From an uncultured Actinomycetota bacterium (lineage in GTDB: Bacteria; Actinomycetota; Coriobacteriia; Anaerosomatales; JAGXFU01), in the NCBI GenBank assembly GCA_963790405.1, contig CAWBOJ010000006.1, positions 380,858 through 444,857 of the forward strand: a stretch of 64,000 nucleotides of DNA, given 5' to 3'. Position 1 is the stretch's first letter. Each line of letters starts with the position of its first letter. The position numbers and the translations under genes are program-made. The notes below the pieces were generated by a model, which saw nothing but the letters and a program-made list of their open reading frames with translations, did not search any database and was not told the origin of the DNA. Shown here piece after piece: positions 8,660 through 64,000 of this stretch.

Positions 8660-8692
8660 CATACTGGTCATATGAACGAGCGCTCATATGAC
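8660..8692 (+). promoter_or_regulatory. ArsR/SmtB-type 12-2-12 operator overlapping the start codon of a probably leaderless transcript
   Basis: GTCATATGAACG-AG-CGCTCATATGAC at 8667-8692; extended -10 TGtCATACT ending 6 nt before ATG 8672. Confidence 0.8.
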
Positions 8693-9064
8693 ATCACCCG
8701 AGATGCCAAGTGTGAGACGACTGCGGTCGATTGTGAAATGGTCGCGCAGGTAGTCGCTGCTCTACCGCAGCAAGAACTCGCCGACGCGGTCGCCCGATTG
8801 TTCGATGCGTTGTCGGATCCGACGCGGTTGCGCGTTCTCAACGCCTTGGCCGTGAGTGAGCTGTGCGTGTGTGACCTTGCGGAGATTGCCGAGGTCAGCC
8901 AGTCAGGCGTGAGTCATCAGTTGCGCGTCTTGCGCGACCTGGATCTCGTTGCCTTTCGGCGCGAGGGACGTCGCGCGATATACCGGCTGGCCGACGAGCA
9001 CGTCAGAGCACTCGTGTCGGTTGCGACCGAACACGCGAACGAGCGGTTCGAGGGCGACCGATGA
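8672..9064 (+). CDS. ArsR/SmtB (CadC-like) metal-responsive repressor
   Basis: ALSDPTRLRVL, ELCVCDL, SQSGVSHQLRVL; N-terminal cysteines. Confidence 0.92.
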   Translation: MNERSYDITRDAKCETTAVDCEMVAQVVAALPQQELADAVARLFDALSDPTRLRVLNALAVSELCVCDLAEIAEVSQSGVSHQLRVLRDLDLVAFRREGRRAIYRLADEHVRALVSVATEHANERFEGDR

Positions 9065-11691
9065 ACCCTCACGAGGGATATGAACGCCTGCGCGTGCCCG
9101 TGCGTCTTCCTGCGGGGGAGGCATGCACGACGTGCATAGCGCGCTTTGACCAGGGAGTAGATGCGGTCGCAGGTGTCGGCTCGGTCGAGGTAGACCCCGG
9201 AGCGTCGGAGCTCGAGGTTGTCTACGATCCCTCCGTCATCACGCGCGAGCAGCTCGTTGCCCACATCGAGCGTCTTGGCCACGAAGTCGGTTCGGCCGTC
9301 GCTCACGTTTCGTGGCGGGTCGACGGTCTCGATTGCCCTGACTGCGCCAGAACCGTGGACGTGTCCGTGTCGCATCTCGACGGTGTCTTCTCGGCATCGC
9401 TCAACTTCGCCAGTGGCATGCTGTTCGTCGAATACGATTCAGCCGAAGATCCGCGTGCCGAGATCGAGCGATTCGTGGACGGCATGGGCTACGGCCTCGA
9501 GCGCGTGGGAGACACCGCCGGACGGCCGGTGGCAGAGTTTCGGGTCAGCGGGCTGGACTGCCCCGACTGTGCCAGAGTGCTCGCCGATCGGATTGCCGCG
9601 ATCGATGGGGTGGACAGCGCCGAGATGGAGTTCGCCACTGCCCGACTGAAAGTCGGCTACGACCCGGCGGTCGTTGCGCCGACGCAACTCGCCGATGCGA
9701 TCGTCATCGGGGGATACGGCGTCGAGGAACGTCCGATCCCGGGTACGGTCGCGACCTCGGGATCACGCGTTGGTCGCCGAGGGGACACGGCTACCTGGGT
9801 GAGCGGTGTGCTCATCGCACTGGGGTGGCTGCTCGAGTGGTTGCTCGGGCCTGCCGGTGATGCGCAGGTGTGGCGGACGGTCGTGTCCGTCGTGCCGTTC
9901 GCAATCGCGATTATCGTAGGCGGAGGCCTGATTTTCCGTCGTGCGGTTTCGTCTGCACGGGCTCGCATCTTAGACATGAACGTTCTCATGACCGTGGCGG
10001 TCATCGGCGCTGCACTGATTGGCGAGTGGGCCGAGGCGGCGATGGTCGTCTTCCTGTTCTCCGTTGGCGGGATGCTCGAGTCGCGCTCCCTCGAGCGCAC
10101 GCGTCGGTCGATCCGGGATCTCATGGACCTCGCGCCAGCCATCGCGCGGGTCGTGCGGGCCGGTGTCGAGAGCGAGATCTCGCCGACCGACGTTGCTGTC
10201 GGCGACCGCATCGCGATTCGGCCGGGCGAGCGGTTGCCGCTTGATGGCCGTATCGAGGAAGGCTCCTCGGCGATAGATGAGGCGGCCATCACCGGAGAGT
10301 CGGTGCCGGTCGACAAGGGGCCCGGCGACACGGTGTGGGCGGGGACGCTCAACACCTACGCGCCCCTGATCGTCGAAGTCACTGCGCCTGCCGAGGACAC
10401 AACGCTTGCTCGCGTCATCTTCCTCGTCGAGGAAGCCCAGGCTCAGCGCGCGCCGTTCCAGCGGCTTGTCGATCGGTTCACGCGGTGGTACACGCCTGCA
10501 GTGACTGTGACGGCGGGTCTTCTGGCGATCGGGCCGCCGCTCCTGGGTGCTCTTGCGCAGCCTGGGACGTTCGGCTTCGACACGTCGTTTGCGACGTGGT
10601 TCTACCGCGCACTGGTTCTGCTTGTTGTCGGCTGCCCGTGCGCGCTGGTGATCTCGACGCCGGTAGCCATCGTCTCGGCGATCACTCGCGCATCTCGCGA
10701 CGGTGTGCTCGTCAAAGGCGGCGCCTTCCTCGAGATGGCTCCGCGGATCCGCGCGCTGGCGTTCGACAAGACCGGTACGCTCACGCTGGGCCGCCCCGAT
10801 GTCGCCGAAGTGATCGCGCTCGACGGCATCGACGCCCCGACGGTGCTCGGGCTGGCCGGGACGCTGGAGCGCATGTCGACGCACCCTCTCGCCGGAGCCG
10901 TGGTGCGAGAGGCCGAACGAGCGGGGGAGAGCTTCTCGGCGAGTTCGAGCGATGTGCGTGAAACTCCGGGCCGTGGAGTGACCGGCGTGCTAGACGGTCA
11001 ACCGGCGGTCATCGGCAGCCTTGCCTTCGCCGAAGAGTCGGGATTCGCGGCGGACGGCGCACGCGCACACGTGGAACGGGTTGAGAATGATGGTCGCACC
11101 GCTCTGGCCCTGGGCTTGGGCGAGCGTGTCGTGGGTGTGATAGCGGTCGCGGACATGCCCCGCGAGAGCGCTGCGGGCGTGATCGAGCGGCTGCGAGGCA
11201 CGGGGCTGGACGCAATCACCATGCTCACCGGGGACAACGAGCGCGTTGCGGGCGCGATCGCGCAGCGTATGGGCCTGGACAGCTTCGATGCCCGGCTGTT
11301 GCCTGCGCAGAAGGTGGATGCTGTGCGTGCGCTCAAGGAACGCTACGGTGCCGTGGCGATGGTCGGAGACGGGATCAACGACGCGCCGGCGCTGGCGATG
11401 GCGGATCTTGGGATCGCGATGGGAGCGGCGGGCAGCGACACAGCGCTCGAGACTGCGGATATCGCGCTCATGTCTGACGATCTGAACGCGTTGCCGCGCT
11501 TCTTCGAGCTGGGACGACGCACGGTGGCGAACATCCGGCAGAACGTCGTGATCTCGGTCGTCATCAAGCTGATCGTGCTCGTGGCGGCGGTTCTCGGCTT
11601 CGCACCACTGTGGCTGGCGGTGTTCGCCGATACGGGTGTCGCGTTGCTCGTCATCCTCAACGGTTTGCGACTCCTGCGGCCGGTCTCGTGA
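9061..11691 (+). CDS. Heavy-metal P1B-2 ATPase (Zn/Cd/Pb type) with three N-terminal HMA domains
   Basis: CTTC, CPDC, CPDC; TGES, CPC, DKTGT, GDGINDAP; Lys in TM7 and ADTG in TM8. Confidence 0.93.
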   Translation: MNPHEGYERLRVPVRLPAGEACTTCIARFDQGVDAVAGVGSVEVDPGASELEVVYDPSVITREQLVAHIERLGHEVGSAVAHVSWRVDGLDCPDCARTVDVSVSHLDGVFSASLNFASGMLFVEYDSAEDPRAEIERFVDGMGYGLERVGDTAGRPVAEFRVSGLDCPDCARVLADRIAAIDGVDSAEMEFATARLKVGYDPAVVAPTQLADAIVIGGYGVEERPIPGTVATSGSRVGRRGDTATWVSGVLIALGWLLEWLLGPAGDAQVWRTVVSVVPFAIAIIVGGGLIFRRAVSSARARILDMNVLMTVAVIGAALIGEWAEAAMVVFLFSVGGMLESRSLERTRRSIRDLMDLAPAIARVVRAGVESEISPTDVAVGDRIAIRPGERLPLDGRIEEGSSAIDEAAITGESVPVDKGPGDTVWAGTLNTYAPLIVEVTAPAEDTTLARVIFLVEEAQAQRAPFQRLVDRFTRWYTPAVTVTAGLLAIGPPLLGALAQPGTFGFDTSFATWFYRALVLLVVGCPCALVISTPVAIVSAITRASRDGVLVKGGAFLEMAPRIRALAFDKTGTLTLGRPDVAEVIALDGIDAPTVLGLAGTLERMSTHPLAGAVVREAERAGESFSASSSDVRETPGRGVTGVLDGQPAVIGSLAFAEESGFAADGARAHVERVENDGRTALALGLGERVVGVIAVADMPRESAAGVIERLRGTGLDAITMLTGDNERVAGAIAQRMGLDSFDARLLPAQKVDAVRALKERYGAVAMVGDGINDAPALAMADLGIAMGAAGSDTALETADIALMSDDLNALPRFFELGRRTVANIRQNVVISVVIKLIVLVAAVLGFAPLWLAVFADTGVALLVILNGLRLLRPVS

Positions 11692-53484: not shown

Positions 53485-54708
53485 CTAGCCAAGTTCGCGA
53501 GCTGTCGCTTTCAGTTGCTTGGCGAGCAGACCTGCGACTCTGGGGTTGTCGCCCCAAGCACCGATCGTGACCGTCGAGACGTGTGCTTCGACGCGTGCCT
53601 GCCTGATGGACACCTGCATGTCGATGATGGTCACGGAACTCTCGAACGGGAAGCAGGCGGGGCATACCAGCACGCGGCTACATCCGAGTGCTGCGAGGTG
53701 CCGGACCGTCTCGGTGATGTCCGGATTTCTCCATTCCGCGTAGCACAAGCGGACGTTCTGCTGAGGTAAGCCGCGGTCTATCAGGATGGACCGCACGCGA
53801 TTGGCGAACGAGTTCTCTTGAACATCGAAAGAGGTGTGGCTCTTCTGCCAGGCATCGGGCTGTCCATGCAGCGTTAGTGCTACACCCGTGTGCTCCGGGA
53901 CATCTCGAGCCTGCCAGACGAGGTCGGAGACGTGCTCGCACAACTCGGCAGATCCCCAAAGGGGCGGGGTGTAGCTGAGCCGAAGCCCGTGTGACTCAGG
54001 TCTCAAGGAGTCCACCGCAGCCTTGGCGCGATCCATGGCGTAGGACTCACCGACAGCCAGCGTCGCGACGACGATGTTGCGGAAGCCATCCTGCGCTGCC
54101 TGAACAACTACTCGATCTAGAGTGTCGCGGCCGACGCCCGATACGAAACGGACTGCACCGAAGTCCTTGCCGAGCTCAGATTCGACGTTCTCAGACAATG
54201 CTCGTGCTTGACGTGCAGCCGGGCTGGTGCCGCCGAGTGCGCGATACCGTGCCTTCTGCGCGGCATACAGAAATGGTGCGATGCCCAGTGTTGCTTCAGG
54301 CAGACCCGCTGCAGCGAGGCGTTCCAGCTCCTGTGCGATAGCGGATGGCCTGTAGTGCTCCGGTTCGATCTGAGCGACGATGAGCGCCAATGGACCCGAG
54401 ACGGTGTCATCGAACGTGTCGGGCAGTTCGGGGGTGCTGCGTCGGGCGGCAAGGTAGGGGAGCAGTGCTGAGGCGAGCGCGTAGCCACCGCCGACAGAGC
54501 CGACCGAGAGGCCCAGAGCGGCAAGCGTCACGTTTGCCTGGCCGTAGGCGTCTACGACTTCGATGATTCCCCACGCTCCACCGACTATTCCCGCTATGGC
54601 CAAGAAGAGGAGCAGGGGTTCTCGTCCCCGTGATACCACCAGCAGGCCTACGACCGATGTGCCGACCGTTAGCCCACCTATGAAGATGGTGCCCCACTCG
54701 ATTGTCAT
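53485..54708 (-). CDS. Membrane-anchored ferrochelatase/class II chelatase-like protein
   Basis: Three N-terminal TM helices; RYRALGGTSP, LTLHGQP, C-terminal PDITETV...VLVCPACF. Confidence 0.7.
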   Translation of the reverse strand: MTIEWGTIFIGGLTVGTSVVGLLVVSRGREPLLLFLAIAGIVGGAWGIIEVVDAYGQANVTLAALGLSVGSVGGGYALASALLPYLAARRSTPELPDTFDDTVSGPLALIVAQIEPEHYRPSAIAQELERLAAAGLPEATLGIAPFLYAAQKARYRALGGTSPAARQARALSENVESELGKDFGAVRFVSGVGRDTLDRVVVQAAQDGFRNIVVATLAVGESYAMDRAKAAVDSLRPESHGLRLSYTPPLWGSAELCEHVSDLVWQARDVPEHTGVALTLHGQPDAWQKSHTSFDVQENSFANRVRSILIDRGLPQQNVRLCYAEWRNPDITETVRHLAALGCSRVLVCPACFPFESSVTIIDMQVSIRQARVEAHVSTVTIGAWGDNPRVAGLLAKQLKATARELG

Positions 54709-54775: not shown

Positions 54776-54804
54776 TTGACTACTAATACCCCAGGGGGTA
54801 TACT
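54776..54804 (+). promoter_or_regulatory. trxA promoter with CsoR/CstR-type operator
   Basis: TTGACT-17 nt-TATACT; ATACCCC-AG-GGGGTAT at 54786-54801. Confidence 0.85.
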
Positions 54805-54852: not shown

Positions 54853-55173
54853 ATGAGTACAGCAGTGAAAGACGTATCGACCTCTGAGTTCACTTCGGAG
54901 GTTCTGGACGCAACCGTTCCCGTTGTGGTCGACTTCTGGGCACCGTGGTGCGGTCCGTGTCGTGTGGTAGGTCCCGAAGTCGAGAAACTTGCGGATCGCA
55001 TGAACGACAGCGCTAAGTTCGTGAAGGTGAACGTGGACGACAACCGTGACATCGCAATGAAGTACGGCATCATGAGCATTCCGACTATTGCGAAGTTCGA
55101 GCGAGGAAACATGATCACCCAAGTGGTTGGGGCACGCGGTGCCGATGCGCTAGCCTCGGAACTCGGGCTGTAG
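54853..55173 (+). CDS. trxA: Thioredoxin
   Basis: DFWAPWCGPC, MSIPT; GGAGG RBS. Confidence 0.96.
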   Translation: MSTAVKDVSTSEFTSEVLDATVPVVVDFWAPWCGPCRVVGPEVEKLADRMNDSAKFVKVNVDDNRDIAMKYGIMSIPTIAKFERGNMITQVVGARGADALASELGL

Positions 55174-55183
55174 GCTGGTATCA

Positions 55184-55399
55184 TTGCCTACGTACGAACT
55201 GACTTGCCAGGCTTGTGGTGAGCGCTTCGACCGATTCTTCACCAGGTTGCTTCGCGAAGAGGACAAGGTGTGTCCGGTTTGCGGGTCCACACAGGTGAAG
55301 TGCGGTTTCGGGGGAGGTATCCTTGGCAAGGGAACGAGCGCCGGTGTCGGTGCCGTGCCCGCCGCCTCGTGCGGGACAGGGGGCTTCACTTGAGGCTAG
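55184..55399 (+). CDS. FmdB-family zinc-ribbon protein; possible Sec at TGA 55391 (ends at 55393 if UGA is stop)
   Basis: MPTYE..CQAC..CPVC; ends CGTGGFT-TGA-GGC-TAG with a downstream hairpin. Confidence 0.85.
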
Positions 55400-55433
55400 C
55401 CCGCGTCTGGCCAGACGTCCGAGGGAGTTGTCG

Positions 55434-55808
55434 GTGGACTACGCGTACAAGCGGGTAGGCACTGAGGGATTCGAATCTACGATCGAGGCCGTGGAGCGCT
55501 CTGTGCGCGACCACGGCTTCGTCATACAGCAGTTTCACGATATCAGCGCCCGGTTGGCTTCGAAGGGCTTCCCGATCCGGCCGCTCGTGATCTTCGAGAT
55601 CGCCTTGGCGGACGGTGATTCGGACGAAATGGTCTCGCTACTCATGCCGTGCAGGATCAACGTCTACGAAGAGGGCGACAGTGTCGTCGTCGCTGCGCTT
55701 CGGCCCAGCCTGTTCAAGGCGGTGTTTCCGGAGCACGAGCTCGATGCAGTTGCGCAGAGAGTAGAGGCGAGCGTGATCGATGTCGTAGACAGCGCTGTCA
55801 GCGGGTAG
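55434..55808 (+). CDS. DUF302-family protein
   Basis: HGFVI...DISARLASKG, LLMPCRINVYE, ALRP. Confidence 0.75.
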   Translation: MDYAYKRVGTEGFESTIEAVERSVRDHGFVIQQFHDISARLASKGFPIRPLVIFEIALADGDSDEMVSLLMPCRINVYEEGDSVVVAALRPSLFKAVFPEHELDAVAQRVEASVIDVVDSAVSG

Positions 55809-55853
55809 ACGGCAGACGCACGGCAGGGTCGATGCACCCGCGTTGGAGTCTGG

Positions 55854-56441
55854 CTACAGGACGCATGCCGAGTATCTCAGGAAGACAGCGATAGCCTCAT
55901 CGACTAGCTCGTCTCGCGTCTGTGCACGGTCATCGATGAGACATTCCTTCATCGAGTGCCCGAGAATGGCCAGTCCAACGTCTCCGATGGTTGAGGTAGC
56001 TCGCGACAGTCCCTTGAGGATAGCGTCGCATTCAGCACCTTCTTCCATCCGTTCCTGGATGTCACGGAGTTCAGCTTCCAGGCCGCCGAGTCGCGATATC
56101 ATCTCCGCGCTGTCTCCCGGAGAGATGCTGCTGGGATCAGGCGTCGACGTCGATAGGTTCCTATACCGGATGAAGACTTCGAATGCTTCCTGGATCACGC
56201 TATCCCGTCCGGTTTCGGCTCCGCCGGCCAGGCATGTCTTCATCGAGTAACCGATGATGCGCATTCCCACCTGCGTTAGCGCCGACTTGGCCGCGAGCAC
56301 TTGCGTCAGAATCGCCTGACAGTCCTTGTCGGAGCCGATCATCGTCTGAAGTCCGCGCACCTGACCCTCGAGCCGTTTGAGGCGGTTCACGATGCGGCGC
56401 CGTTCCGACTCGACTGTTATGGCATCCATGCGCTCGGGCAT
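55854..56441 (-). CDS. Tandem CsoR/CstR-family repressor (two repeats)
   Basis: Repeat 1 NRLKRLEGQVRG..DKDC..SMKTC; repeat 2 SRLGGLEAE..GAEC..SMKEC; GAGGAG RBS. Confidence 0.85.
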   Translation of the reverse strand: MPERMDAITVESERRRIVNRLKRLEGQVRGLQTMIGSDKDCQAILTQVLAAKSALTQVGMRIIGYSMKTCLAGGAETGRDSVIQEAFEVFIRYRNLSTSTPDPSSISPGDSAEMISRLGGLEAELRDIQERMEEGAECDAILKGLSRATSTIGDVGLAILGHSMKECLIDDRAQTRDELVDEAIAVFLRYSACVL

Positions 56442-56493
56442 AGCTTCTCCTCGATGGTGTTGCGATATCATTGTGCGGTACGTCTGTCGAAAA

Positions 56494-56512
56494 TATACCC
56501 CCTGGGGGTATA
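56494..56512. promoter_or_regulatory. CsoR/CstR-type operator between the divergent repressor and CDF genes
   Basis: Perfect palindrome TATACCCCC-T-GGGGGTATA. Confidence 0.88.
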
Positions 56513-56533
56513 ACGTGCAAGCGCGGGGATGGT

Positions 56534-57481
56534 ATGAGCCCAAACACTGAAACGGTATCCGCCTACTCCACTCCGCCGAGGATCAAGCAGATCAGGCGGG
56601 TTCTGTGGGTCGTTCTATTCCTCAACCTCATTGTGGCGATCGCCAAGATGGGTTGGGGCTACTTCTCCGGCTCGGTGGCCATGCAGGCCGACGGGTTCCA
56701 TTCTCTGTTCGACGGAACCTCGAACGTAGTCGGGCTCATCGGCATCGGTATGGCTGCTCGGCCTCCAGACAAGGACCACCCCTACGGTCATGCGAAGTAC
56801 GAGACCTACGCCTCGCTTGCCATCGGGGCGATGCTCGCCTTGGCGGCCTACAACGTGGGAAGCAGTGCCGTTCGGGAGTTGATGGCGGGTGCAGAACCTC
56901 CGCGCGTCGACATGATTTCGTTCGCTGTCATGCTTGGGACGCTCGCAGTCAACTTGACCGTGACTACGTATGAGCGTCGGGTTGGGAAGCGCATTGGCAG
57001 CGAGATCTTGATTGCGGACGCATCCCACACGTTCAGCGACATCTGGGTAAGCCTGGGCGTTATCGTCGGACTGGTCGCCGTCAAACTCGGCTACCCACAA
57101 GCCGACCCGCTCATCGCCGTGCTCGTAGCATTCGCCATCGCTTTCACGGCGTGGCATGTGTTCAAGCAAGCCAACGCGACGCTTTCTGACACGGCACGCA
57201 TCCCGCCGGTTGACGTGTGTGCCCGCGCCCGCGCGGTTGAGGGCGTACTGGGTTGTCATCACGTGCGGACACGCGGTACTGAGGCTGAGGTCTACGTCGA
57301 CCTTCACGTTCAGGTCGATCCGTCTTTGAGCGTCGAGGAGGGTCATCGCATCAGCACCGAGGTGGAGAATGTCGTGTGTGCTGCCTTCGATGCTGCAGTC
57401 GATGTTGTGGTTCATCTCGAACCGTACGATTCCTACGAGGCTTCGAAGACCGCCGAGGAGATCAATGCAGGACTTGCCTAG
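56534..57481 (+). CDS. Cation diffusion facilitator (FieF-like)
   Basis: ADGFHSLFD, PPDKDHPYGHAKYE, ADASHTFSD, VVHLEP. Confidence 0.93.
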   Translation: MSPNTETVSAYSTPPRIKQIRRVLWVVLFLNLIVAIAKMGWGYFSGSVAMQADGFHSLFDGTSNVVGLIGIGMAARPPDKDHPYGHAKYETYASLAIGAMLALAAYNVGSSAVRELMAGAEPPRVDMISFAVMLGTLAVNLTVTTYERRVGKRIGSEILIADASHTFSDIWVSLGVIVGLVAVKLGYPQADPLIAVLVAFAIAFTAWHVFKQANATLSDTARIPPVDVCARARAVEGVLGCHHVRTRGTEAEVYVDLHVQVDPSLSVEEGHRISTEVENVVCAAFDAAVDVVVHLEPYDSYEASKTAEEINAGLA

Positions 57482-58445
57482 GGCTGACGGGTCGCAGGAA
57501 TCATGGAAAGGATACGCACTCGCTGCTCTTGCGGCCGTCTTCTGGGCGACCGGCGGTCTGACTGCGAAGTGGCTGTTCAGCCCGATAGATGCTACGACGT
57601 CGGCGTGGCCGTTCCCTCCGCCCGGGCTCGAGGTTGATCCGCTTGTTCTCGCAGGCGCTCGTGCCCTCACAGCCGCGCTGATCCTGTTGGTGTACGTGGC
57701 TATCGCCAAGCCAGCCGCACTTCGTATCCGTCTTCGGGATGTGCCATTTCTCGCTCTGTTCGGCACAGTTGCATTGGCTGGAGTTCACGCGGCCTACTTC
57801 CTGGCGATTTCACACACCAACGTTGCCACTGCGGTGCTGCTCGAGTACCTGGCGCCCGTCATCGTGCTGGGCTTCTCCGTCGTTTTCTTGGGCGAGCGAA
57901 TGACCTGGGCCCTGCCGGTCGGGGTGGCTTTGTCTATTGGCGGTTGCGCGCTTGTTGTGGGAGTCGCGGGGGGAGCGGAGCTTGCGGTCACGTCGGCGGG
58001 TCTGGCGTGGGGTCTTGCAGCCGCTGGCTTCTTTGCCTTCTACCAGCTTCTCGGAAAATGGGCTGTTCCCCGATACTCGCCCTGGACGCTGCTCACGTAC
58101 GGGCTTCTCGCGGCGTCTGTGTTCTGGATCGTGTATCTTGGCGGTTTCGCCGAGATGCGCGCTCTGATGATAGAGCCTGCCGGAGGTGCAGCAGTGGTCT
58201 ACATTGCTGTCGCCTCCACGATTATTCCCTTCGGTGCTTCGCTGAAGGCCCTTCACTACATCGATGCGACAAAGGCGGTCGTCACATCCACTCTTGAGCC
58301 CGTGCTCGCAGGCATCGCGGGTTGGGTGGTGCTGGCCGAGATGTTCGACGCGTGGCAGGTGCTCGGCGGAGTGCTGGTTCTGGCTGCTATCGTGGTCGTG
58401 CAGCGGTCGGATCGTCGCGGCCTTGCGATTCCACCCGGAGTCTAG
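57465..58445 (+). CDS. EamA/DMT-family transporter
   Basis: About 10 TM helices; LEYLAPV, LGER, LEPV. Confidence 0.88.
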   Translation: MQDLPRADGSQESWKGYALAALAAVFWATGGLTAKWLFSPIDATTSAWPFPPPGLEVDPLVLAGARALTAALILLVYVAIAKPAALRIRLRDVPFLALFGTVALAGVHAAYFLAISHTNVATAVLLEYLAPVIVLGFSVVFLGERMTWALPVGVALSIGGCALVVGVAGGAELAVTSAGLAWGLAAAGFFAFYQLLGKWAVPRYSPWTLLTYGLLAASVFWIVYLGGFAEMRALMIEPAGGAAVVYIAVASTIIPFGASLKALHYIDATKAVVTSTLEPVLAGIAGWVVLAEMFDAWQVLGGVLVLAAIVVVQRSDRRGLAIPPGV

Positions 58446-63377: not shown

Positions 63378-63596
63378 ATGGCCGAGACACAGACGACGCT
63401 CAAAACGACCGGTATGCATTGCAGGTCATGCTCGATGCTCGTGGACATGACCGTCGGCGAGCTTGAGGGCGTCGAGAGCGTTGAAACCGACCACGTCAGT
63501 GGGGACACGAAGGTGTCGTATGACCTGGAGAAGGTCTCCGTTGACGACATAGTGTCAGCAATCAGATCAGCTGGCTACGACGTCGACCAAGCGTAG
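63378..63596 (+). CDS. CopZ-like HMA metal chaperone
   Basis: GMHCRSC, 72 aa, C-terminal AGY. Confidence 0.9.
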   Translation: MAETQTTLKTTGMHCRSCSMLVDMTVGELEGVESVETDHVSGDTKVSYDLEKVSVDDIVSAIRSAGYDVDQA

Positions 63597-63640
63597 TCTG
63601 TCATCGCCCAACGACCGACAAACGAGAGGACCATCAAGAC

Positions 63641-64000
63641 ATGAGCGAGACGACGTATGCGGCATCGAGTCGCACGAAGTACATTCTTGTTGCCGTAGTG
63701 GTTGTACTGGCGTTCTTCGCTGCATACGGTATCGCGTCAGGCCGCGCGGATGCTTCCTCACAGACTGCCATCCCGGCCACGACAGCCAACGGTTCTGGAA
63801 CCGCTGCTGCGTGTGACCCTGCGGCTGATCTGGCAGCGTGTGGTGGAGACTGTTGCGAATCAGGCTCGTCCGAGCTGATCGAAGGAAGTGCGACGCTTGA
63901 AGGCGATGTGCAGAAGCTGTACGTGGATGTCTCGGGCGGCAGTTTCGATCCGAACGTCATCTACGTGAAGGCTGGCGTTCCGATCGAGCTCACGTTCAGC
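63641..64000 (+). CDS. Membrane-anchored cupredoxin-like protein with Cys-rich linker (3'-truncated)
   Basis: Translated by hand (absent from ORF track): TM helix, CDP..CGGDCC, then FDPNVIYVKAGVPIELTF. Confidence 0.7.
   Translation, partial: MSETTYAASSRTKYILVAVVVVLAFFAAYGIASGRADASSQTAIPATTANGSGTAAACDPAADLAACGGDCCESGSSELIEGSATLEGDVQKLYVDVSGGSFDPNVIYVKAGVPIELTFS

Follow-up and report, generated by a model that had tools for sequence, protein, structure and literature searches.

Repressors of the CsoR family are familiar as homotetramers of D2 symmetry and, in CsoR and CstR, the first cysteine of one protomer meets the second cysteine of the other. How the four identical sites and the two identical DNA faces are used is a matter of debate; two tetramers occupy an operator, and CstR is noted for a 'functional asymmetry'. 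The present analysis concerns a member of this family in which two unlike repeats are joined in one chain. Its gene lies in a stretch of 64,000 nucleotides ('the window') from an uncultured bacterium of the Coriobacteriia (Actinomycetota; assembly GCA_963790405.1, contig CAWBOJ010000006.1, positions 380,858 to 444,857 of the forward strand). With a probability of roughly 0.6, we take the product to be a CstR-like dithiol repressor, responsive to persulfide or thiol stress, in the form of a natural asymmetric single chain. The fold, the cysteine fingerprint, the operator type and the kind of regulon are already known from the family; what is new is the single-chain, subfunctionalized architecture. 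The chain would separate a DNA-binding half from a sensor-only half with all of the sensing cysteines kept, and offers a ready asymmetric construct for mutating any one site or face without touching the others.

The closest described systems

ScCsoR (SCO0620) of Streptomyces coelicolor, the one characterized actinomycete member, is a single-domain protein with Cys37 and Cys66 placed 29 residues apart that binds ATACC-N6-GGTAT; it is described as a sensor of sulfane sulfur that leaves DNA in the presence of polysulfide and has rhodanese and persulfide dioxygenase genes under its control (PMC7533328). The window protein has in common with it the family PF02583, the x-C-x-C pattern, the 29-residue cysteine spacing, a predicted operator of the ATACC-N6-GGTAT type, putative autoregulation and a candidate rhodanese target. 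ScCsoR, however, is one domain of ~100 residues, whereas the window protein is a fused pair with one predicted DNA-binding half. The candidate regulons also differ, that of the window protein having thioredoxin, ccdA and CDF, and that of ScCsoR persulfide dioxygenase and TauE; no search here was aimed at SQR, persulfide dioxygenase, CoA persulfide reductase or TauE. The likeness to ScCsoR, and to the actinomycete 'cluster 3' candidate persulfide sensors, is drawn from the published descriptions (PMC7533328, PMC8643695).

CstR is described (PMC8643695) as forming di- to tetrasulfide links between protomers and as functionally asymmetric within the dimer. The CstR proteins of S. aureus, E. faecalis and S. 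pneumoniae (7mq1-7mq3) resemble the window protein in predicted fold, in having two sensing cysteines and in lacking a His at position Y of the fingerprint, although the sequence match to 7mq1 is modest (E 8.7e-9). CstR is a D2 homotetramer of identical chains; in the window protein, by contrast, the asymmetry lies in one chain and any cysteine bridges would be intrachain. The 'wedge' residue of SpCstR is Asn at position 55, whereas the window protein has Ser at Y.

Amongst proteins of solved structure, the best sequence match is the Cu(I)-sensing CsoR of G. thermodenitrificans (4m1p, E 2.8e-11). With Cu(I)-sensing CsoR (M. tuberculosis 2hh7, 4m1p and S. lividans 4adz), the window protein shares the helix-1 RLxR and a GTA-dyad palindrome (PMC3902906). 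It differs in its tandem chain, in having RLxR in repeat 1 only, in the missing Cu-ligand His and in that neither copA nor copZ lies under its operator. Nor does it have the features of the Ni/Co sensors RcnR, InrS and DmeR (H-C-H-H or H-C-H-C plus an N-terminal His and amine): its N-terminus, MPERMD, is unconserved and lacks an early His, Ser stands at Y, and the NCBIfam matches to RcnR and FrmR are far below their cut-offs. A search of the literature found no paper on tandem or fused CsoR-family proteins; the sequence similarity network supplements of PMC8643695, which may list two-domain entries, lay outside that search.

Architecture of the tandem repressor

The gene and the parts of its product are as follows.

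55854..56441 (-): gene of the tandem CsoR/CstR-family repressor, 195 residues, defined by an open reading frame (ORF) and two PF02583 stretches; stop codon at 55854-55856
56151..56441 (-): repeat 1, residues 1-97, predicted DNA-binding and sensing half (PF02583, E 9.9e-22), with NRLKRLEGQVRG on helix 1, C41 (56319-56321), S66 and C70 (56232-56234)
56112..56150 (-): linker, residues 98-110, STSTPDPSSISPG-like; variable alignment columns, non-helical, predicted local distance difference test (pLDDT) 67-78 for the block
55857..56111 (-): repeat 2, residues 111-195, acidic and predicted to be sensor-only (PF02583, E 1.2e-9 alone), with RLGGLEAE replacing RLxRxEGQ, C138 (56028-56030), H162, S163, C167 (55941-55943) and C193 (55863-55865)

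The ATG at 56441 is preceded by a Shine-Dalgarno sequence, GGAGAA, as read from the DNA, and homologues share the same start; an alternative, longer frame starting with TTG and reaching 56543 would cover the operator described below. The original prediction, made from the DNA letters alone, had described two repeats, each with a pair of cysteines 29 residues apart and Ser at +25, of which the first keeps RLKRLEGQ and the second has RLGGLEAE. Translation and alignments bear this out, with both motifs reading exactly so, at residues 20-27 and 117-124. The cysteine pairs C41/C70 and C138/C167 stand in register at a distance of 97 residues, and S66 and S163 align with the Cu-ligand His column of Geobacillus CsoR (4m1p) and InrS (5fmn).

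That both halves belong to the family is evident from a Pfam profile search, in which PF02583 (Trns_repr_metal, DUF156) was found twice in the whole protein. Each half alone also exceeds the gathering cut-off of 22.8 bits, at 77.6 bits for residues 1-99 and 38.8 bits for residues 98-195; the hidden Markov model (HMM) search proposed with the original prediction thus recovers two repressor domains. BLASTP aligns one half with the other at 38% identity over 77 ungapped residues (E 1e-17). The two dithiol sites, as had been claimed, are not equivalent: the four cysteines are invariant or nearly so amongst homologues, but their neighbours differ (Y65/S66 as against H162/S163), and a C-terminal cysteine follows repeat 2 only. 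This fifth cysteine, C193, lies within a conserved C-terminal YSxCV tail (YSACV here). H162 adjoins S163 and is thus one residue off the Cu-ligand column, and R61 takes the place of the His of most relatives. The genome, of which the assembly is 85% complete, yielded no second PF02583 gene.

Divergence of the two repeats

In an alignment of 34 sequences, the invariant residues of repeat 1 are N19, R20, L21, R23, G26, Q27, R29 and G30 on helix 1, C41, L45, T46, Q47, A50, S53 and A54 on helix 2, and K68. Repeat 2 keeps none of the putative DNA-reading positions of repeat 1; its conserved residues are instead L118, C138, V155, L157, M164, C167 and the tail of helix 3. Two homologues with scrambled second halves (P0084 and P0110) were dropped from alignment A2. 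The opposite behaviour of the helices is best seen in the 12 genomic tandems, for which mean pairwise identities and net charges are given below.

Identity, whole core: repeat 1, 0.63; repeat 2, 0.44
Identity, helix 1: repeat 1, 0.71; repeat 2, 0.29
Identity, helix 3: repeat 1, 0.53; repeat 2, 0.59
Net charge, helix 1: repeat 1, +3 to +6; repeat 2, 0 to -4
Net charge, whole core: repeat 1, +1 to +6; repeat 2, -4 to -10

In the window protein itself, helix 1 carries +5 in repeat 1 and -4 in repeat 2, and the whole core of repeat 2 carries -9. The expectation that the fusion would have only half of the usual basic DNA-binding helices therefore holds for the 12 tandem orthologues, in which helix 1 is basic and RLxR/GQ is conserved in repeat 1 only. 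The significance of these residues is indicated by S. lividans CsoR, where mutating RLxR or the conserved Gln abolishes operator binding (PMC3902906). The cysteines, on the other hand, are kept in both repeats. Three of them, C41, C138 and C167, never vary across 55 tandem sequences, and the fourth, C70, shows a conservation of at least 90%; the 29-residue spacing is found in both repeats of 22 of the 23 tandems checked, and the C-terminal cysteine in all 12 genomic tandems of the window's group. As judged from these alignments, repeat 1 has retained the putative DNA-reading helix 1 (RLxR, GQ) together with the LTQ..AAKSAL stretch of helix 2, whereas repeat 2 has lost both and turned acidic, but has retained both cysteines, helix 3 and the ancestral C-terminal cysteine tail.

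Predicted fold

AlphaFold2, given an alignment of 55 sequences, predicts a compact six-helix pseudo-dimer (pLDDT 83.8; predicted template modelling score, pTM, 0.79), with helices at 2-36, 41-71, 79-97, 111-134, 138-168 and 176-192. In VIA-align, S. lividans CsoR (4uig) superposes on residues 8-98 of the model with Z 7.5, S. pneumoniae CstR (7mq1_A) on 111-192 with Z 7.7 over 81 residues, and single-chain four-helix bundles on 9-165 over 96 residues at 2.5 A. Foldseek found nothing in the PDB that matches the model at E <= 0.001; chains of CsoR, CstR and InrS appear in its list at E 0.14-0.47 with probabilities of 0.96-1.00. Since structural Z scores do not discriminate between helical proteins, the fold of repeat 2 rests mainly on the HMM.

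With this in mind, the model agrees with an intramolecular copy of the CsoR dimer core. The fused pseudo-heterodimer that had been proposed is likewise in keeping with the data, in that both repeats pass PF02583 alone and each modelled repeat fits a CsoR/CstR protomer. The three-helix protomer with helices 1 and 2 in a four-helix bundle, a trait of the family, is present in the prediction. The D2 homotetramer of identical protomers of ~90-100 residues, another such trait, is not what this gene encodes, the chain having 195 residues and two unlike repeats.

Homologues and origin of the fusion

A word-indexed search found 45 clusters of full-length tandems, of 190-205 residues and 38-74% identity, in its list of the 120 best proteins. 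Most of the other listed proteins are single-domain, 109-122 residues long and 53-69% identical to repeat 1. In a scan of loci limited to one genome per species, 80 were kept, nearly all from Coriobacteriia or Actinomycetota metagenome-assembled genomes; 11 of these (L001-L010 and L062) encode a tandem of 194-209 residues and the remaining 69 a single-domain orthologue of ~100 residues. Tandem and single-domain loci have a common gene order, rpoN-EamA-[CDF]<>regulator-DUF302-ZnR-Trx-ferrochelatase-like-PHP, in which the regulator is divergent from the EamA/CDF side and the genes for DUF302, the Zn-ribbon protein and thioredoxin are convergent with it. The single-domain orthologues end in ..DELIDEAIxVFLKYSSCV, which is the tail of repeat 2, and their N-terminal half resembles repeat 1.

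Because the tandem and single-domain proteins are positional orthologues, the fusion arose, on this comparative evidence, by tandem duplication of the ~100-residue orthologue in place, after which the halves specialized. A quick maximum-likelihood tree (119 rows; P0051, in which repeat 1 has no second cysteine, was left out) is consistent with such a course. One clade (SH-aLRT 99), with a stem of 0.66, unites the 14 repeat-2 sequences of the window's group, and their repeat-1 counterparts stand together on stems of 0.08-0.14; both groups are nested among the single-domain orthologues. The phylogeny of each repeat, another check suggested at the outset, thus gives repeat 2 a long-stemmed clade of its own and repeat 1 short stems. 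A second tandem group (P0036 and others) and P0045 are placed elsewhere in this weakly resolved tree, and may have duplicated separately.

It might be argued that the tandem is an artefact of assembly or annotation, or that repeat 2 is a decaying pseudo-domain devoid of function; repeat 2 does evolve faster, it has no DNA-binding motif, and the second halves of P0084 and P0110 are scrambled. We find this scarcely credible. Eleven independent genome assemblies and ~45 clusters, some as low as 38% in identity, have the same open frame, which excludes the artefactual joining of two genes that the original prediction had allowed for. A contig from another metagenome run (X1) spans the repeat junction (56056-56205) with two differences and no indel, and duplication during assembly can be dismissed because the repeats are only 34-38% identical (by alignment or BLASTP). 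Of the sequencing runs listed as carrying this DNA, three are of DNA and none is of RNA; the DNA runs have it in short contigs only, half of those compared being 95% identical or more. Decay is also at odds with the invariance of C138 and C167 and with a helix 3 no less conserved than its counterpart in repeat 1 (0.59 as against 0.53).

Tandem PF02583 proteins of 177-209 residues also occur in other lineages (e.g. P0139, P0151, P0152, P0195 and P0215), with two PF02583 stretches in 13 of the 14 scanned. They are 21-25% identical to the window protein in alignment and 23-32% across matched stretches, and in several of them C-H-C is present, or RLxR/GQ retained, in the two halves alike. The low identity and the differing cysteine and RLxR patterns mark these as separate duplications with other likely ligands; the tandem architecture is thus recurrent, being found in several unrelated lineages. 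In P0152, which has RLxR/GQ in both halves, the linker and second half also match the family of the CdaS N-terminal domain (PF10372, E 2.9e-10).

Predicted operators and candidate regulon

Two copies of a palindrome of the CsoR type were found in the window.

56495..56511 (no strand assigned): predicted operator O1, ATACCCCCTGGGGGTAT (ATACC-N7-GGTAT, 17 bp), in the 92-bp gap between the repressor start at 56441 and the CDF start at 56534
54786-54801: predicted operator O2, ATACCCCAGGGGGTAT (16 bp), in the spacer of the trx promoter; pattern match at 54787-54800
54776..54804 (+): predicted promoter of the trx operon, TTGACT-17-TATACT, with O2 in its spacer; 10/12 matches in the promoter scan

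These two matches to the operator pattern (at 54787 and 56496) compare with 0.03 expected in the window. Genome-wide, ATACC-N6/7-GGTAT occurs at 12 sites, as against one for the reversed control; three of the 12 have no G/C tracts, lie inside ORFs and are probably due to chance. A looser pattern, TACCC-N3-9-GGGTA, gave 10 genomic sites and six in the control; it was non-specific and was replaced by the stricter one. Four of the genomic copies lie in promoter spacers: those of the repressor gene with the divergent CDF-EamA pair, of trx-Zn-ribbon-DUF302, of ccdA and of a rhodanese gene. By eye, the repressor/CDF gap contains TTGCAC-17-TATATT for the repressor and TATAAC for CDF. The ccdA copy is in the spacer of TTGCCG-17-TATACT, ~190 bases past the end of the window, and the rhodanese copy is in TTGCGA-18-TATAAT before the gene of a membrane-anchored rhodanese. 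A G/C-tract palindrome with TAC/GTA dyads overlapping promoters, as is characteristic of the family, is therefore present in the DNA as a predicted operator.

The same element is widespread amongst the relatives. The core TACCCC..GGGGTA lies upstream of the orthologous regulator in 77 of the 80 loci, tandem and single-domain alike, and the site precedes the trx operon in 64 of 71 (10/11 tandem, 54/60 single-domain). Of 20 loci of the rhodanese orthologue, from 19 genomes with G000 among them, 14 have it upstream, and in 12 it lies within 100 bp; this count leaves out the weaker matches L109-L112. The tandem proteins thus share with their single-domain orthologues one symmetric predicted operator and, since the putative reading motif is present only in repeat 1, two chains would be needed for its two half-sites. 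A candidate thiol-stress regulon (thioredoxin, CcdA, rhodanese, CDF, EamA and DUF302) is thereby defined for uncultured anaerobic Coriobacteriia-like actinobacteria, and the DUF302 and Zn-ribbon proteins gain a functional context.

Two further observations concern the sites themselves. Across L001-L080, the spacing of the regulator-adjacent site is almost always N7 (17 bp) and that of the trx-operon site always N6 (16 bp). Further ATACC-N6-GGTAT copies with G/C tracts occur in G000 at C6:357880 (L123), C6:24932 (L122), C6:490899 (L124), C3:156847 (L117) and C5:44149 (L120), and these may mark additional members of the regulon. Their contexts include positions before a glutamine-dependent NAD synthetase-like gene, upstream of a chemoreceptor gene and near an SBF transporter/HlyD-like pair; others are a position before an ORF of 308 residues with no known function and a double site near unknown ORFs, with a second, imperfect copy 24 bp on.

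Proposed mechanism and the nature of the signal

For the architecture, conservation, repeat divergence and operator distribution observed, we infer an oligomeric state, a site pairing and an inducer as follows. The two three-helix repeats, joined by the ~13-residue linker, would fold back on each other to give within one chain the four-helix-bundle 'dimer' that normally needs two protomers. By analogy with the inter-protomer sites of CsoR and CstR, the predicted thiol pairs are C41 with C167 and C138 with C70, each between repeats. A pseudo-tetramer made of two such chains would then offer two repeat-1 helices to the ATACC and GGTAT half-sites, and in its reduced form the protein would occupy the spacer/-10 region of the four promoters (that of its own gene and CDF-EamA, and those of trx-Zn-ribbon-DUF302, ccdA and rhodanese). 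Thiol oxidants, persulfides among them, would bridge or modify the intrachain, inter-repeat cysteine pairs and so cause release from DNA; CDF could export Zn freed from oxidized thiolate sites.

Evidence for a signal of this kind includes the fingerprint. Both repeats have x-C-x-C (C41-S66-C70 and C138-S163-C167), with no His at Y and no N-terminal ligand, and x-C-x-C is what defines the candidate persulfide-sensor clusters of the CsoR family (PMC8643695). A response to thiol or persulfide stress is also suggested by the operator preceding the genes for thioredoxin, CcdA and rhodanese. The original prediction had named reactive sulfur or selenium, rather than Cu, as the likely signal. The preference for sulfur over Cu gains from the position of the operators, before trx, ccdA and rhodanese and not before the CopA-like ATPase. 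The selenium part finds no support: the scores of the rhodanese and CcdA against selenoprotein-related NCBIfam models are far below the cut-offs (28.8 as against 115 bits and 48.4 as against 805 bits, respectively), and this candidate was set aside.

Several points tell against the persulfide/thiol-stress reading or the tandem model on which it is built. The quick tree, on 85 columns, has many unresolved forks; the VIA-align Z scores, at 7.5-9.3, are also reached by unrelated helical bundles; the conservation of the regulon is conservation among kin and hence not independent evidence; and a consensus scan of 55750-56650, the repressor/CDF gap included, found no promoter and no terminator. The gene nearest the repressor, moreover, encodes a CDF metal exporter, which is equally compatible with a metal sensor. 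The protein would on that account respond to a thiophilic metal (Zn/Cd/Co-type), and metal bound at the cysteine pairs, the C-terminal cysteine and nearby His would release it and chiefly induce CDF; thioredoxin, ccdA and rhodanese would ride along, as such metals deplete thiols. In a softer form, it would be a dual sensor of metal and thiol stress. The CDF gene is indeed divergent, with the operator between, at 63 of the 80 loci and at all 11 tandem loci; its product carries the HxxxD/HxxxD site residues, and its best NCBIfam match is to Zn-efflux Cdf31 (245 bits, below the 460 cut-off; the superfamily model TIGR01297 passes). The C-terminal cysteine is present at 63 of 63 CDF loci and absent from 12 of the 17 loci without CDF, but the 12 consist of one clade and one further locus, so that this link amounts to few independent events. 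His residues occur at -5 and -9 from the second cysteine in most orthologues; here, however, the -9 and -5 positions are R61 and Y65, and some tandems have N, R or S in place of the -5 His of repeat 2. Ni/Co sensors do exist in the family (PMC11672702), yet Y is Ser or Ala in all members seen here and no N-terminal His is conserved. Given in addition that the trx, ccdA and rhodanese operators point to sulfur or thiol chemistry, and that heavy metals are provided for in this genome by an ArsR-regulated P1B ATPase, we regard a metal sensor as the main rival, though a rather unlikely one.

It has also to be asked whether the two sites could serve different ends. In a 'Janus' pseudo-tetramer, both repeat-1 DNA-reading helices would lie on one face and an acidic, DNA-repelling repeat-2 surface on the opposite face, making a two-input single-chain repressor. 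Its sites would be chemically different, C41/C167 with H162 and perhaps C193 as against C138/C70 with Y65, and could read two signals, such as a thiophilic metal and persulfide or disulfide stress; this would explain why one repressor stands over a metal exporter as well as thioredoxin, ccdA and rhodanese. We consider it improbable. Less probable still is a Cu(I)-sensing CsoR like the founding members, for which one might cite the same Pfam family and cysteine spacing, the CsoR-type G/C-tract palindrome, and CopZ-like HMA and cupredoxin-like proteins ~7 kb away that adjoin the ccdA operator. Ser replaces the Cu-ligand His in both repeats, and neither x-C-H-C nor the CopA/CopZ neighbours by which Cu sensors are defined (PMC8643695) are found. 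With Ser at Y, and with the CopA-like ATPase (9061-11691) preceded by an ArsR-family gene of its own and showing no operator match, Cu is an unlikely ligand. A dithiol repressor responding to persulfide or thiol stress remains the reading we prefer.

Neighbouring and candidate target genes

The genes on either side of the repressor are as follows.

56534..57481 (+): CDF efflux gene (PF01545 and PF16916), with HxxxD on TM2 and TM5; divergent from the repressor
57369..58445 (+): EamA-family transporter (PF00892), directly 3' of CDF, true start uncertain
54853-55173 (+): trx (PF00085)
55184-55393 (+): Zn-ribbon protein (PF09723)
ORF from 55323 to 55808 (+): DUF302 protein (PF03625), start uncertain

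The EamA gene is probably in one operon with CDF; at most of the 80 loci its neighbour is either CDF or the regulator. The trx-Zn-ribbon-DUF302 operon (54853..55808, +) is convergent with the repressor gene. On its other side, a gene for a membrane-anchored ferrochelatase/CbiX-like protein of 407 residues (53485-54708, -) starts 78 bp from the trx-promoter operator on the opposite strand; its place in the gene order is kept in most of the 80 loci, and the regulated intergenic region may serve it as well.

One clade of single-domain orthologues (L016, L019, L020, L027, L037, L042, L050, L056, L058, L063 and L071) has the tail ..LLRYVNLPESWP.. and not ..FLKYSSCV, and so no C-terminal cysteine. 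All of these loci are without CDF; EamA is divergent from the regulator and the operator is retained.

Elsewhere in the window, an ArsR-family gene (8672-9064) overlaps the start of the gene for a P1B-type ATPase (9061-11691) with three N-terminal HMA domains; the two make up a heavy-metal efflux unit of their own, and no operator of the CsoR type lies close by. At the far end (window 63378-64000, continued in L114:836-2208), a CopZ-like HMA protein of 72 residues (GMHCRSC) is followed by a membrane-anchored cupredoxin-like protein (173 residues) and then by the operator-bearing promoter and ccdA. After the operator-bearing rhodanese gene, an ORF of 107 residues (L084:2118-2441) has no Pfam or NCBIfam match.

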